Assembly (NCBI GenBank): GCA_963811165.1
Contig: CAWEQH010000010.1
Span: 160,001 to 224,000 of the forward strand
Direction: 5' to 3'
DNA length: 64,000 nt
DNA from: an uncultured Nitrospiraceae bacterium
Lineage (GTDB): Bacteria; Nitrospirota; Thermodesulfovibrionia; Thermodesulfovibrionales; UBA6898
Both the position numbers and the translations under genes were made by a program. The notes beneath the pieces were generated by a model. That model worked only from the letters and a program-made list of their open reading frames with translations, did no database searches and had not been told where the DNA came from. Of this stretch, positions 10,312-52,925 are shown in pieces; position 1 is the first letter of the stretch; every line of letters begins with the position of its first letter.

Positions 10312-10335
10312 TCCGGATTATTTACGGATGCGCAT

Positions 10336-10434
10336 GGGACAGTATTTTCGCTCATTCTTGCCCCGCTGAATCGGGACTCCGAGGTCATAGGGAGCAAAGT
10401 TGCCGCATTATAATTTTTTTTTGGAGCGTGTCCC
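10336..10434 (-). repeat. Degenerate copy (C) of the unassigned structured intergenic element
   Basis: Contains TATTTTCGCTCATT and CTCCGAGG in the same order as the copies at 20948 and 51558. Short terminal pairing GGGACA/TGTCCC. Confidence 0.55.
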
Positions 10435-20881: not shown

Positions 20882-20947
20882 CCCGCGATCTCCCCCATCT
20901 AAACCGGAGCGTTATATATCAAACATCTCAATAGGACCGATTCCCAA

Positions 20948-21097
20948 AGGAGGGGCATAATATTTTCGCTCATTCCCGGTCCCGGGAAACCGGTACCTCC
21001 GGGGCTTTTGCCTCTTGATACCAGGGATGCTCCAGGAATACCTGCCCGCCGGCAGGCAGGTCGGCAAAAGGATCCGCTCAAATACCATGCCCCTCCT
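20948..21097 (-). repeat. Copy A of the unassigned structured intergenic element, with a nested CCTGCCCGCCGGCAGGCAGG palindrome
   Basis: 18-bp closing stem 20948-20965/21080-21097, inner stem CTTTTGCC/GGCAAAAG, conserved junction motifs. The palindrome lies at 21041-21060. Confidence 0.75.
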
Positions 21098-21108
21098 CGC
21101 AGCTGCTT

Positions 21109-42556: not shown

Positions 42557-43234
42557 TTGCAGAGACTCATATTCCCTGAGATATTGAGGGGCCGTGTAAC
42601 TGCCTTTTTTACTGGCAAAGATCCCGGGGCTGATCTTGGTGAGGTCGCCCAAATGCTCGGGGTTACAAAAGAGGATATCTATCTGCCCATCCAAAAACAT
42701 ACCGACAAGATCGTCCTTCTTGAGTCCTCCCGTGAGACGAAGATCGCCGACGCCGTCGTTACAAAAGAACCCGGCGTATTGATCGGGGTCCGGACGGCCG
42801 ATTGCGTGCCTGTTCTCATCTATGAAAAAGAAAAGGGCATCATTGGCGCGGTGCATGCCGGATGGAGGGGGACCGCAGCCGGCATTTTGAAAAAAACGCT
42901 CGAAATGATCATGCGAAGATATGTCTGCGGTCCAGGAGGTTTTTATGTCGCCATCGGTCCGAGTATAAAGGGCTGCAGCTACGAGGTAGATCATGAGGTC
43001 TATGACGCGGTTAAAAAGGGGGCCGGTGAGGGTGCTTATTACACAAAAAAAGGAGAGAAATATTTTCTCGATCTTCCTTCCGCCAATAAATATCAGACAT
43101 TGTCTCTAGGAATTCCCGAACCCAATATATGGGTTTCGGATGAATGTACTTACTGTAATCCTGATAGGTTTTATTCCTACCGTTACTCCCGGGGTTCCAC
43201 CGGCAGACAGGCCGCGTTCATCGGGAAGTTGTGA
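42557..43234 (+). CDS. pgeF: Peptidoglycan editing factor/YfiH family protein
   Basis: Q.H, TADCVP, HAGWRG, GPSI, FYSYR. Confidence 0.9.
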   Translation: MQRLIFPEILRGRVTAFFTGKDPGADLGEVAQMLGVTKEDIYLPIQKHTDKIVLLESSRETKIADAVVTKEPGVLIGVRTADCVPVLIYEKEKGIIGAVHAGWRGTAAGILKKTLEMIMRRYVCGPGGFYVAIGPSIKGCSYEVDHEVYDAVKKGAGEGAYYTKKGEKYFLDLPSANKYQTLSLGIPEPNIWVSDECTYCNPDRFYSYRYSRGSTGRQAAFIGKL

Positions 43235-43475
43235 TATCAGTTCATCCTGGATGGCACAACGTAACCCCAGAATGTAATTGATGCAGAAACATGCTCCAAA
43301 AAATTTTATAATGTCGCAACTTGCTGTTTACGTTATCAGACCTTCTTAGTTGAGCAAGATGCTTATTCGGATATCAGCGCCCCCACAAAGGTGGCGCAGA
43401 TAAAGTTTTTTTCCGCACGTCTCTGCATTCCTTGTCCTAGTGGTGTTTATAGAGGGAAACGCTTCCGTACGGACA

Positions 43476-43603
43476 TGCATGAGGACGGCATCTGAGCGGT
43501 TTCAGCGGCGCGCATTGCATCACCCGTCGGTGATGTGCGCCGGTGCCTCGGAGGTCCGGAGCTTCGACGGGCCGAGAATGAGCGATGACGCTGTCCTCAT
43601 GCA
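43476..43603 (+). repeat. Copy D of the unassigned structured intergenic element
   Basis: 14-bp closing stem 43476-43489/43590-43603, GAGCGG 43494-43499, CCTCGGAGG 43546-43554, AATGAGCGA 43577-43585. Confidence 0.75.
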
Positions 43604-43634
43604 GATATGAGGCGTAAGTATGGCCTTCCTTTGC

Positions 43635-43671: not shown

Positions 43672-46476
43672 ATGGCTAAAGATTATAAAGATACACTTAA
43701 TCTTCCACAGACTGATTTTCCGATGAAGGCGAACCTTTCGCAGAGGGAGCCGGAGATGCTGAAAAATTGGGATCAGAAGAAGATCTATCAAAAGATGCTG
43801 GAGGTCAACAAGAGCAGGTCCGACAGAAAGTATATCCTTCATGACGGGCCTCCTTACGCAAACGGGCATATCCATATGGGCCATGCCTTAAACAAGATAC
43901 TCAAAGACATAATCGTCAAATACAACTCCATGAAGGGCTTTTACGCCCCTTATGTGCCGGGATGGGATTGTCATGGTCTTCCGATCGAGCTTCAGGTCGA
44001 CAAGGACCTGGGCGAAAAAAAGGACAAGATAACCATTCTCGAAAAGAGGAACCTTTGCAGAGAGTATGCGTCTAAGTTCGTTGATATCCAGCGTGAGGAA
44101 TTCAGGAGGCTTGGCGTGTTCGGGGACTGGGAAAGACCCTACCTTACGATGACGTATGGTTACGAAAGCTCCATAGTGAGGGAGTTCTTTAAGTTCGTAA
44201 AGAGCAAATCCGTATATAAAGGGAAAAAGCCCGTCCATTGGTGCCCCTCCTGTGTGACCGCGCTGGCCGAAGCAGAGGTTGAATATGCAGATAAAGAGTC
44301 GCCTTCCGTCTATGTAAAGTTCGGCATCGACGAAGAAAATCTCTCAAAATACCTTCCCTCTCTGAAAGGGAAAAAAGTATTTGTCATCATCTGGACCACC
44401 ACCCCCTGGACGCTCCCTGCAAACCTCGCGATAGCCTTCCATCCCGATTATGAGTATGCTGCCGTGGCTCAAGGCGACGAGGTATTCGTTGTCGCCGAAG
44501 GCAGGATAGAGGCGCTCAGGGAGAAAATAGGCATCGGAACCGAGATCATTGTGAAGGTGCCAGGGAAATCCCTTGAAGGGATGCTTGCGGACCATCCTTT
44601 TATTGAAAGGAAATCGAAGGCGGTCCTGGCGGAATTTGTCTCTTTGGATGATGGCACCGGTATCGTCCATATAGCGCCGGGCCATGGTGAGGACGACTAT
44701 GAGGTGGGACTTAAATACGGCCTCGATATCTATGCTCCTGTCGATGACAGGGGCAAGTTTACGAAGCAGGCAGGGGACCTCGAGGGCCAGTTTGTCTTTA
44801 AGGCCAATGCGGTGATTATAGAGACACTGAAAAACAAAAACGCGCTTGTCAGGGAAGAGAAGATCACTCATTCCTATCCGCACTGCTGGCGGTGCAAAAA
44901 GGCGGTCATATTCCGCGCCACCGAACAGTGGTTCATCTCGGTCGAGTTTAACGACCTCAGAAAGAGATGTCTCGATGAGGTGGATAAAGTTTCGTGGGTT
45001 CCTAAGTGGGGCAGGGAGAGGATTTACGGTATGCTTCTTAACAGGCCGGATTGGTGCATCTCGAGGCAGAGGAGCTGGGGCGTACCGATCACTATGATAC
45101 GCTGTGCCGGGTGCGGCAGCTTTGTCGAGGACGAAGAGGTCCTTGAGGGTATCACGTCCCTTGTGGAAAAACACGGTGCGGATGTCTGGTTCACAAAAGA
45201 TGCGGCGGACTTTCTGCCTCAGGGATACGGCTGCAGGAAGTGCGGCAAAAAAGATTTTACGAAGGAGATGGACATCCTCGACGTATGGTTCGACTCGGGT
45301 GTCAGCCATGCGGCGGTGGTTGAAAGTGACGATCGTCTTTCATGGCCGGCCGACATGTATCTTGAGGGCAGCGACCAGCACAGGGGGTGGTTTCAGAGTT
45401 CTCTGCTCACTTCCGTCGGCGCCCGGGGCAGTGCTCCCTATCGCACCGTTCTTACGCACGGTTTTGTCGTAGACGGCGCGGGAAAGAAGATGTCCAAATC
45501 CCTTGGGAATGTCATTGCGCCCCAGGAGATCATTAAGGGCTTCGGCGCCGAGATCCTGCGCATATGGGTATCTGCAGAGGACTATAAAGACGATATAAGG
45601 ATTTCGAAGGAGATCCTAAACAGACTGACAGAGGCATACAGGAAGATCAGAAACACCTGCAGGTTCCTCCTCGGGAACCTCCATGATTTCGATCATCGGG
45701 ATTATAGCGGCAATCTTCAGGAGATCGACAGATGGGCGATGAGCAGGCTCCAAAACCTCACGGCGAGGGTCACGCGGGCATATGAGAACTTCGATTTTCA
45801 TGAGGTCTTCCATTCTATTCACAACTTCTGCGTTGTGGACATGAGTTCCTTCTATCTCGATGTGCTTAAAGACCGGCTCTATACGGCAAAGACCGATTCT
45901 GCCGAGCGAAGGGCGAGTCAGTGGGTCCTGTCCGAGATACTCTCGACTTTGACGGGGATTATGGCCCCCGTGCTATCCTTTACCGCCGAAGAAGTATGGG
46001 GATATATAAAGAGTGAAAAGTTAAAAGTGAAAAGTGAAGAGGCAGAGTCTGTATTCCTGTCTGCTTTTCCGGAGGTCAACGAGAAGTTCCTCGATAATGC
46101 GCTCGAAGAAAAATGGAAGGACCTTCTCGATCTTCGTAACGAGATCAATAAGGCGCTTGAGATCAAGAGGGCCGAGAAGTTTATAGGCAACCCGCTTGAG
46201 GCGAAGATAAAGATATATCTTCCGGAAAAATACAGGGACTTAGTATCTTCCTACCTGGATTTTCTTCCTGCGCTGCTTCTTGTCTCAACGGCTGAAATCA
46301 GCGGAGAGAAATTGCCGGGGGCTTATGAAAGCGCCAATATCGAAGGTCTCCAGGTGCTTGTCGAAAGGGCCCAGGGCGAAAAATGCCAGAGGTGCTGGAA
46401 CTGGTCCACGAAGGTCGGTACCTTTACCGATGAGCCCGAACTCTGCGAGCGATGCTATCCGGTAGTAAAAGGGTAG
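43672..46476 (+). CDS. ileS: Isoleucine--tRNA ligase (type 1)
   Basis: PPYANGHIHMGH, WTTTPWTLP, GSDQHRGWF, KMSKS, C-terminal Zn finger CQRCW...CERC. Confidence 0.99.
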   Translation: MAKDYKDTLNLPQTDFPMKANLSQREPEMLKNWDQKKIYQKMLEVNKSRSDRKYILHDGPPYANGHIHMGHALNKILKDIIVKYNSMKGFYAPYVPGWDCHGLPIELQVDKDLGEKKDKITILEKRNLCREYASKFVDIQREEFRRLGVFGDWERPYLTMTYGYESSIVREFFKFVKSKSVYKGKKPVHWCPSCVTALAEAEVEYADKESPSVYVKFGIDEENLSKYLPSLKGKKVFVIIWTTTPWTLPANLAIAFHPDYEYAAVAQGDEVFVVAEGRIEALREKIGIGTEIIVKVPGKSLEGMLADHPFIERKSKAVLAEFVSLDDGTGIVHIAPGHGEDDYEVGLKYGLDIYAPVDDRGKFTKQAGDLEGQFVFKANAVIIETLKNKNALVREEKITHSYPHCWRCKKAVIFRATEQWFISVEFNDLRKRCLDEVDKVSWVPKWGRERIYGMLLNRPDWCISRQRSWGVPITMIRCAGCGSFVEDEEVLEGITSLVEKHGADVWFTKDAADFLPQGYGCRKCGKKDFTKEMDILDVWFDSGVSHAAVVESDDRLSWPADMYLEGSDQHRGWFQSSLLTSVGARGSAPYRTVLTHGFVVDGAGKKMSKSLGNVIAPQEIIKGFGAEILRIWVSAEDYKDDIRISKEILNRLTEAYRKIRNTCRFLLGNLHDFDHRDYSGNLQEIDRWAMSRLQNLTARVTRAYENFDFHEVFHSIHNFCVVDMSSFYLDVLKDRLYTAKTDSAERRASQWVLSEILSTLTGIMAPVLSFTAEEVWGYIKSEKLKVKSEEAESVFLSAFPEVNEKFLDNALEEKWKDLLDLRNEINKALEIKRAEKFIGNPLEAKIKIYLPEKYRDLVSSYLDFLPALLLVSTAEISGEKLPGAYESANIEGLQVLVERAQGEKCQRCWNWSTKVGTFTDEPELCERCYPVVKG

Positions 46477-51557: not shown

Positions 51558-51715
51558 ACTGAAAGGACATAATATTGTCGCTCATTGTCGGCCTTCGACC
51601 TCCGAGGTATTTGCCCTCCACCCCCCTTTAATCCCCCCTTAGTAAGGGGGGATTAAAGGGGGTCTGTCTGAGTATCGGGCAAATAAAGCCGCTCCGAATA
51701 CTATGTCCTTTCAGT
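51558..51715 (-). repeat. Copy B of the unassigned structured intergenic element, with a nested CCCCCTTAGTAAGGGGG palindrome
   Basis: 19-bp closing stem 51558-51576/51697-51715, inner stem TATTTGCCC/GGGCAAATA, conserved junction motifs. Confidence 0.75.
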
Positions 51716-51754
51716 CAAAAAAATATGAATATGGTGGCTGATCGCTGATTTCCC

Positions 51755-52801
51755 ATGAGACGAATACTCCATATGGACATGGACGCTTTTTTTGCCTCTG
51801 TCGAGGAGAGAAGGCATCCCGAACTGAAGGGCAAGCCGGTCGTGATCGGTGGAGAAGGGGACCCTACGCAGAGGGGAGTGGTATCAACTGCTTCATACGA
51901 GGCCAGGAAATACGGCATCCATTCCGCGATGCCTCTTCGGACCGCCTACAAGCTCTGCCCTCACGCCGTCTTCCTGCCTGTTGACTATAAGGAATATTCC
52001 CGCGTGTCGGAGATCATAAAAAATACCCTTAGGCAATTTACCCCTCTTATTGAAGATGTCGGAATAGACGAGGCGTTCCTCGATATTTCAGACATCGAAG
52101 GATCTGCCGAGGAGGTCTCGGGTGAGATCAAGATAATGATTTTGCATGAGACCGGCCTTACCTGTTCAATCGGTATCGGCCCTAATAAACTGATAGCCAA
52201 GATTGCTTCCGACATGGAGAAACCCGACGGCCTGACGGTAATCAGCGAGGGCGACATTGAAGCCCGAATATGGCCGTTACAAGTGAGAAAACTCTGGGGC
52301 GTGGGGCCTAAGACCGAGACCTGTCTTAAGGACATGGGCATCGACACTATAGGAGATCTGGCCGCAACGCCGATCGAAACACTCATCGGGACTTTCGGCA
52401 ACTCTTACGGACGGTTTCTTTTTGAATCCTCACGAGGCAGGGACGAAAGTCCGCTCGTCACGAAATGGGAGCCGAAATCTTCCAGCCGTGAGACCACCTT
52501 TCAGAGAGACACCGACAATTGGCAGACAATCGCGAGGAACCTCGCCGAATTGACAAAGGAAGTGGTGGGAGATTTAAGACGGTCGGGGTACAAGGGGAAG
52601 AACGTCACCGTAAAAGTGAGGTTCAGCGATTTTAAGACCGTCACGAGGGCCAAGACACTTCAGCAGGCGAGCGATTCCCTGGAGGATATGAGAAGGGCCG
52701 CCTTCGAGTGTTTGGGGAGGATCGAGATCAAAAAGAAGGTGCGGCTCATCGGCGTGAGGGCGGGAAAACTTGAAAGGAATAGCGGAGAAGGCGGGGCATA
52801 A
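51755..52801 (+). CDS. dinB: DNA polymerase IV
   Basis: HMDMDAFFASVE, SYEARKYG, IDEAFLD, AKIASD..KPDG. Confidence 0.96.
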   Translation: MRRILHMDMDAFFASVEERRHPELKGKPVVIGGEGDPTQRGVVSTASYEARKYGIHSAMPLRTAYKLCPHAVFLPVDYKEYSRVSEIIKNTLRQFTPLIEDVGIDEAFLDISDIEGSAEEVSGEIKIMILHETGLTCSIGIGPNKLIAKIASDMEKPDGLTVISEGDIEARIWPLQVRKLWGVGPKTETCLKDMGIDTIGDLAATPIETLIGTFGNSYGRFLFESSRGRDESPLVTKWEPKSSSRETTFQRDTDNWQTIARNLAELTKEVVGDLRRSGYKGKNVTVKVRFSDFKTVTRAKTLQQASDSLEDMRRAAFECLGRIEIKKKVRLIGVRAGKLERNSGEGGA

Positions 52802-52925
52802 TAATCTCGTTCATCCTTGGTCATCGAGCCTTACGACCTGGCTGAGGCGCCCCCTTTAATTTAAGGTCCGTGATTGTGTTATAATTAGTGGTTAATTAAG
52901 GGAATTTGCCTCAGAAGGGGGAGAA

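Follow-up and report, generated by a model that had tools for sequence, protein, structure and literature searches.

The window analysed here, the whole 64,000-nucleotide stretch G000:C10:160001-224000, comes from a 3.66-Mb source genome (G000) that is 95% complete. Between pgeF and ileS it holds a folded repeat, the focal copy, directly preceded by a separate stem-loop repeat that we call family B (Table 1). The first-pass annotation had located three full copies of the folded element, this one and two on the opposite strand, and all three lie where it had put them, with their parts in the order described. Each folds more stably than all 200 of its shuffled counterparts (z -3.5 for the focal copy, -4.4 for copy 2 and -9.9 for copy 3).

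The source genome as a whole contains 36 full and 16 partial copies of the element. An anchored scan of its 3.66 Mb found 35 full copies and none in the reversed-genome control; copy 3, which the scan missed through a one-base offset, is the 36th. An HMM search gave 66 matches at E <=10, from which 16 beyond the full copies (E <0.7) were retained as partial copies. The exact junction pattern is also found in 16/41 relatives, at 2 to 44 copies each. Family B repeats have CCC-type ends of their own and often lie directly upstream of a three-way-junction core. Other members of family B occur at C1:124759-124908, C9:65460-65605 and C10:138420-138585 of the source genome, and one forms a chimera with the core inside the window.

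Table 1. Features of the element and its surroundings in the window. G001, G002, G003, G005 and G006 are congeners of the source genome.
Feature	Position	Strand	Remark
Focal copy	43476..43603	+	128 bases; full P1 and three-way-junction core; subfamily A
Focal copy, P1 5' arm	43476..43493	+	partner arm 43586-43603
Focal copy, GAGCGG	43494..43499	+	GC pairs with GC of 3' GAGCGA; G-A mismatches on either side
Focal copy, pyrimidine linker and P2 hairpin	43500..43546	+	subfamily-specific; site of hairpin inserts in other copies
Focal copy, P3	43547..43576	+	CTC/GAG helix, GGA bulge, variable P3b hairpin with G-C opening
Focal copy, AAT linker and GAGCGA	43577..43585	+	junction anatomy
Focal copy, P1 3' arm	43586..43603	+	pairs with 43476..43493
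Possible decayed IS1380 type-II MITE right end	43608..43623	+	positional alignment; score 10/20, at background level
Family B stem-loop repeat	43265..43428	+	directly upstream of focal copy; same site in G001, G002, G006
ileS	43672..46476	+	downstream neighbour, outside element; TIGR00392 above cut-off
pgeF	42557..43234	+	upstream neighbour of focal copy
Copy 2	20947..21098	-	dapL-folK gap, sense to both genes; G003, G005, G006 empty there
Copy 3	51558..51715	-	mazG-dinB gap, antisense; G001, G002, G005, G006 empty there
Copy 3, type-I IS1380 left terminal repeat remnant	51721..51739	-	aligned to five G011 copies
C-tract/G-tract hairpin inside copy 3 P2	51621..51662	-	one G011 copy has a similar insert
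Half copy	10333..10384	-	core right half fused to family B left arm
Weak degenerate right half, uncertain	52789..52839	-	near dinB stop; E 3.8

Fold of the core and covariation of its stems

The consensus of the element reads P1 (16-21 bp) - GAGCGG - short pyrimidine linker - P2 - C - CTC - GGA - P3b - GAG - AAT - GAGCGA - P1. The motif order first proposed was right overall, but its CCYCGGAGG middle is really C-CTC-GGA-G and its P3 has two parts, in which a CTC/GAG helix and a GGA bulge are followed by a hairpin whose opening pair is G-C. The G-A mismatches beside the GC/GC pair of the junction probably adopt a sheared geometry. A kink-turn or k-junction was considered and rejected: we take the k-turn consensus to be tandem G-A/A-G pairs with an A at the 1n position following a 3-nt bulge, and the expected A is a G in 208/214 copies.

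P1 does differ between copies, as had been noted, but its versions are specific to subfamilies rather than private to each copy, and the focal P1 has 22-26 of its 32 positions in common with six other copies in the source genome. Similarly, the statement that all non-Watson-Crick positions in P1 are G-T holds for the 14-19 bp it referred to, but the focal stem also has A-C and T-T by the junction. P2 is variable and takes inserts, as suggested at first reading; it is subfamily-specific, and inserted hairpins are found in it in copy 3 and elsewhere.

We worked with a 68-sequence alignment, whose references were drawn from the 214 parsed copies by way of 89 non-redundant candidates; the focal copy was added. 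In this alignment 90.5% of cells are paired, compared with 62.6% after shuffling and 37-48% with slid partners, figures that, like those for conservation, owe something to the selection itself, since a copy needed the 3' junction and at least 9/16 P1 pairs to be included. RNAalifold recovered the same fold unprompted. Three other observations are independent of how the copies were selected. G-T outnumbers A-C by 348 to 83 across the 214 copies, which were chosen in a strand-neutral manner that did not favour G-T, and by 45 to 15 in the source genome alone. Between sister copies (79 disjoint pairs, selected by P2), a P1 pair had changed at both of its positions 275 times against 159 expected, with 237 of these changes staying paired. 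Inside the junction, 8 copies have A-T in place of the G-C pair, and 5 of the 214 have just one of the two bases replaced, at loci from several phyla. As the copies are related by descent, the counts in all three observations lack independence. The proposal of a conserved junction with covarying stems, folding on one strand, is thus supported by the pairing, the G-T excess and the junction swap.

Four loci in G011, a genome of the same family (L344, L352, L356 and L370), combine near-identical ends and P1 with P2 and P3b hairpins that differ but belong to a limited repertoire, an arrangement suggestive of hairpin modules being exchanged between G011 copies. At L181 (G000:C10 near 636100-636193), a type-I MITE has both ends and P1, and the entire junction is deleted.

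Terminal repeats and the transposon carrier

In related genomes, young copies of the element are 150-230-bp MITEs whose ends match those of 1.65-1.75-kb IS1380 elements and whose flanks are TA in YTAR. The view that the element is a folded single strand rather than a TIR-defined MITE does not hold, as these young copies are bounded by TIRs with IS1380 or IS66 ends and have target duplications. Among 118 copies from other genomes, the 17-bp IS1380 repeat lies to the left of 26, to the right of 26 and on both sides of 15, and 20 of the 26 right-hand repeats stand 45-49 nt from the junction; the repeat was found in 25/600 control windows. Both ends are present in 10/17 fetched copies of G011 and 10/13 of G013, two genomes from the family of the source genome. 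A metagenome scan with the 17-bp repeat returned 119 loci, of which 15 carry an IS1380 transposase (family call by PF13701 and NF033539), 16 the core and 32 other short sequences, with 56 left unassigned; 8 of the 15 transposase-bearing loci are complete IS1380 elements of 1.65-1.75 kb. Over 40 bounded copies, TA occurs on both flanks in 31 and identical 4-bp flanks in 18, though the left flanks of the metagenome loci are fixed by the search pattern. The core is absent from the IS loci themselves (0/17), so we regard it as cargo and not as an IS remnant.

The same IS1380 ends surround many other hairpin cargos (L199-L317, 32/119 loci), some of which, we presume, resemble GTAG-type REPs. Misrecognition of IS1380 ends is described in PMC9330008.

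A second, type-II kind of end goes with subfamily A, to which the focal copy belongs, and bounds a decayed IS1380 in G028. Scores of at least 13/20 for this end were reached by 6/16 subfamily-A ends, by 2/22 and 0/34 in other subfamilies and by 1.4% of 3520 controls, and the pattern is matched in only 4/151 genomes of the class. Among relatives, congener G003 has an intact IS1380, and G175, from the same family, a frameshifted one whose ends are one base off the left end of the G011 MITE. No IS1380 transposase was found in the 95%-complete source genome, in G011 or in G013.

Within the window, most of the MITE ends are gone from all three copies. The focal copy has no recognisable end above background score. 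Copy 3 is of the same subfamily as the TIR-bounded G011 MITEs, aligns with them and has retained a left-end remnant. Across the source genome, only 2/58 ends match the type-I repeat at >=12/17, and many copies sit too near a stop codon to leave space for a terminal repeat. We compared four sites in up to five congeners. Where congeners have usable sequence, the dapL-folK, mazG-dinB and murB-ddl gaps are filled in the source genome alone; the pheS-pheT site is occupied by another subfamily in G001 and G002 and has no copy in G005 or G006. A derivation of P1 from a target palindrome was rejected, as there is no such stem at empty sites.

IS1380 terminal repeats with TA/YTAR flanks in young relatives, an IS66-type MITE (described below) and filled and empty sites show miniature transposons carrying the core, and the support for a MITE as the vehicle of this family is strong enough that we consider it very probable. 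Features of IS1380-derived MITEs were found at the family level, with the exception of a resident transposase. The three-armed motif itself is uncatalogued, and it is a real structured module inside ordinary miniature transposons.

DDE-derived MITEs such as Nezha, Chunjie, Correia and ERIC, as treated in PMC3184786, are similar in being 150-230 bp long, non-coding and stably folded. They are also similar in their target duplications, filled and empty sites, and ends in common with autonomous ISs, which here are of the IS1380 family (IS1247, ISPme1, ISEcp1) and the IS66 family. The present element differs in that its interior is one conserved fold and not an IS remnant, and in that it is found with two IS1380 end types, with IS66 ends or with no ends. 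IS1247 has a 5-bp duplication according to PMC3281130, whereas the flanks here fit a TA duplication in YTAR. Another parallel is bcr1 of the Bacillus cereus group, a mobile element of about 155 bp in which compensatory changes preserve a branched fold; bcr1, however, is described in PMC3184786 as genus-restricted and transcribed, whereas the core described here occurs in several phyla and has DNA-type loops. In the manner of bcr1, ERIC and Correia (PMC3184786), the element works as a MITE whose cargo is structured.

Gene context, strand and the folded nucleic acid

With respect to ileS, the focal copy is in the sense orientation and 69 nt upstream, and G001, G002 and G006 have family members at the same place, an arrangement that could suggest a cis-regulatory leader such as a T-box or riboswitch. 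We find this reading scarcely credible. The members in these three relatives have different P1 and P2 versions, two of them from another subfamily, and four further congeners have no upstream copy at all. Neighbors of copies are functionally unrelated, with neither a common function nor a transposase among 96 proteins next to 52 copies (Pfam), and most copies are antisense. A scan for promoters and terminators near ileS gave nothing useful. Nor did Rfam return any match at gathering score in the window; by E-value there were chance matches only (E 9.5 and 0.32) and no riboswitch, T-box or ribozyme family, in keeping with the initial impression that no known riboswitch or ribozyme fits. The element is not an ileS regulator; it is mobile DNA. 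More generally, what looks like a covarying 'ncRNA motif' in front of a housekeeping gene may be mobile DNA, and caution is warranted in interpreting such cases.

The strand of the motif had been described as indifferent to gene direction, but the two are not independent. The gene 3' of the motif points towards it in 35/51 cases in the source genome and 101/136 elsewhere, and co-directional copies are antisense more often than sense (25 vs 11 in the source genome; 49 vs 16 elsewhere). Owing to this antisense bias, the fold is mostly absent from neighboring mRNAs, which argues against a cis-regulator; the bias fits a single-stranded DNA module and a transcript-harming RNA equally well. A replication-strand bias was set aside, as the excess of copies on the locally C-rich strand (39/52) is confounded with gene direction.

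Whether the core folds as DNA or RNA is not decided by folding energy, since under both parameter sets the strand with the motif has the more stable fold of the two (197/212 copies as RNA, 200/212 as DNA). The loops incline towards DNA. Among 71 short P3b loops there are 38 triloops (24 of them purine-N-A), 7 GNRA and 0 UNCG. The minimal P3b arm, GCGNAGC, is present in 20/214 copies and is identical to a DNA mini-hairpin described in PMC13037366, where r(GCGAAAGC) melts at 39 C vs 76.5 C for DNA. In our element this hairpin forms the tip of one arm in a larger, mobile junction, and longer hairpins can take its place. Only in Nitrospirota are the loops of the DNA type; those of other phyla are of the CAGGATG type and favor neither DNA nor RNA. 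The first-pass annotation had offered either a new ncRNA or ribozyme class or a single-stranded DNA substrate of a mobilising nuclease. Of these, single-stranded DNA fits the loop sequences better than RNA. A gene for a mobilising nuclease was not found adjacent to copies.

Alternatively, the core could act as RNA, as a candidate self-cleaving ribozyme or as a nuclease or termination signal, spread by MITEs and with sense copies purged through the damage they do to mRNAs. Its fixed junction, free stems and wobble pairs would suit such a role, as would the antisense bias, and MITE-like repeats affect mRNA stability (PMC3184786). Against this stand the predominance of triloops, the scarcity of GNRA and lack of UNCG loops, the DNA character of the mini-hairpin, the survival of sense copies within operons such as dapL-folK and the lack of any match to Rfam ribozymes, and we therefore consider an RNA function rather unlikely.

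Distribution across phyla and the candidate partner

A GTDB scan found at least 131 loci, and 57 of the 80 titled ones among the matches listed are from Nitrospirota. Ten non-Nitrospirota genomes, selected for having a match, all contain the junction; copy numbers range from 1 to 116, and in 9 of the ten the element is multicopy. These hosts include members of Planctomycetota, Latescibacterota, Gemmatimonadota, Desulfobacterales and the CPR groups Parcubacteria and Saccharibacteria. Matches titled Elusimicrobiales, Nitrososphaerales and Spirochaetales (L064, L116, L118) are on short contigs or have no P1; they may be misbinned or chance matches and were not counted as phyla. Viral contigs gave 0 matches to the core and 2 to the terminal repeat, one inside an unrelated gene and the other with no paired end, and plasmids gave one 31-bp match at chance level. 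Openly readable literature on IS1380 and MITEs, IS66 and MITEs, Nitrospirota repeats and the motif strings held no account of the element that we could find.

In the Desulfobacterales genome G205 the core lies within a 195-bp IS66-type MITE with GTAA ends, and these ends are shared by a 1729-bp IS66 that is autonomous. With one mismatch allowed, 7/13 of the core-bearing elements are flanked by an 8-9-bp duplication, and Table 2 of PMC3281130 gives 8 bp for IS66. For the G205 copies, then, both marks of an IS66-derived MITE were found, the GTAA ends common to IS66 and the 8-bp duplication. No outer repeat was seen around the core when the other non-Nitrospirota genomes were inspected by eye. 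Over the 2.5 Mb of G205, one IS66 end is matched 225 times with 1 mismatch allowed, so that IS66 MITEs bearing several kinds of cargo have expanded greatly in this genome. It also has core-less versions of 63 and 98 bp, similar to the one at L181.

MITE interiors are usually regarded as decaying IS remnants, and a plain decaying MITE with a functionless core could in principle account for our observations: template switching would copy changes between arms, and the conservation of the junction would come from recent transfer and the search method. Template switching can create and maintain hairpins (10.1101/2021.04.15.439925; PMC8604942), the scans demanded the 3' junction and P1 pairing and so built in part of the conservation, and core-less and truncated copies occur. 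Nonetheless, copying of arms does not predict a roughly four-fold excess of G-T over A-C on one strand under strand-neutral selection, nor does this account sit well with a G-C to A-T swap, seen in several phyla, within a 2-bp helix between mismatches. The unpaired junction is kept over three kinds of transposon ends and several phyla, while the ends at the same loci decay. We consider the functionless core improbable. That one fixed-junction fold outlives decaying ends across phyla and unrelated transposons points to selection on, or recognition of, the cargo.

On balance, we favor, with modest confidence, a reading of the focal stretch as what is conserved inside a miniature transposon that is non-autonomous and whose ends have decayed, its cargo probably folding as single-stranded DNA and served by a putative enzyme. 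The long closing stem and three-way junction would likely fold as single-stranded DNA, and the junction would likely be recognised by an enzyme acting in trans. Such a protein would read the fixed junction (GAGCGG / CTC-GGA-G / GAG-AAT-GAGCGA) and need only pairing from P1, P2 and P3b. IS1380 transposases may have spread the element in trans within Nitrospirota, with the core as an older REP-like module that entered several MITE chassis, and copies with the folded strand in mRNA would be disfavored, at insertion or by later selection. Conceivably, though more doubtfully, the core is a mobile structured module in its own right, a single-stranded DNA three-way junction that either cuts by itself or has an orphan enzyme of its own, and that has colonised unrelated MITEs (two IS1380 types and IS66) and bare sites in at least six phyla, its arms swapped as modules. 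Being compact, at about 100 nt, and well covaried, the core is a suitable target for assays of self-cleavage or of recruitment of a putative nuclease, as DNA or RNA.

We infer a candidate enzyme because the junction is fixed and in part two-fold symmetric, and by analogy with REP/HUH and comparable pairings of a repeat with a nuclease. REP/REPIN elements with RAYT (HUH) proteins are intergenic, often near stop codons, and patchy among kin, with strand-specific hairpins and fixed unpaired bases. The element described here shares all of these traits, but has no GTAG/CGTC tetranucleotide end, is about four times larger and is branched. Membership in REP/RAYT was rejected, as no repeat-flanked Y1 transposase was found and 0/30 Y1 loci of 15 core-bearing genomes hold the core. 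For GIY-YIG and Y1 loci together, in 14-15 core-bearing genomes, the core was present at 2/60, close to what chance would give, and the repeats at the closest GIY-YIG are different ones, particular to it. The search for a gene consistently adjacent to copies, which had been proposed as a check, returned none by Pfam, by ORF clustering or at these loci: 530 ORFs neighboring 221 loci held no recurrent nuclease, HUH or RT gene, and clustering of 1290 ORFs gave no partner. Likewise, when 468 kb of G201, a Parcubacteria genome of 0.5 Mb, were compared with the source genome, no partner emerged; the matches were housekeeping genes and small GIY-YIG proteins whose flanking repeats are of another kind. 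DNA contigs of a close strain run through the focal locus with no joint across the core, and accordingly no excised form is seen there.

Several smaller observations concern nuclease and reverse-transcriptase genes in these genomes. Small GIY-YIG genes (G000:C7:6308-6598; L540 564-785) are flanked by inverted GTCATTCC-type repeats of their own. On L496 (G201:C2), a GIY-YIG ORF at 398-643 lies inside a sequence of the Parcubacteria genome that we take to resemble an RNase P RNA gene. This small CPR genome also has two reverse-transcriptase-like ORFs (YADD), at L499 11780-12853 and L496 9608-10039.
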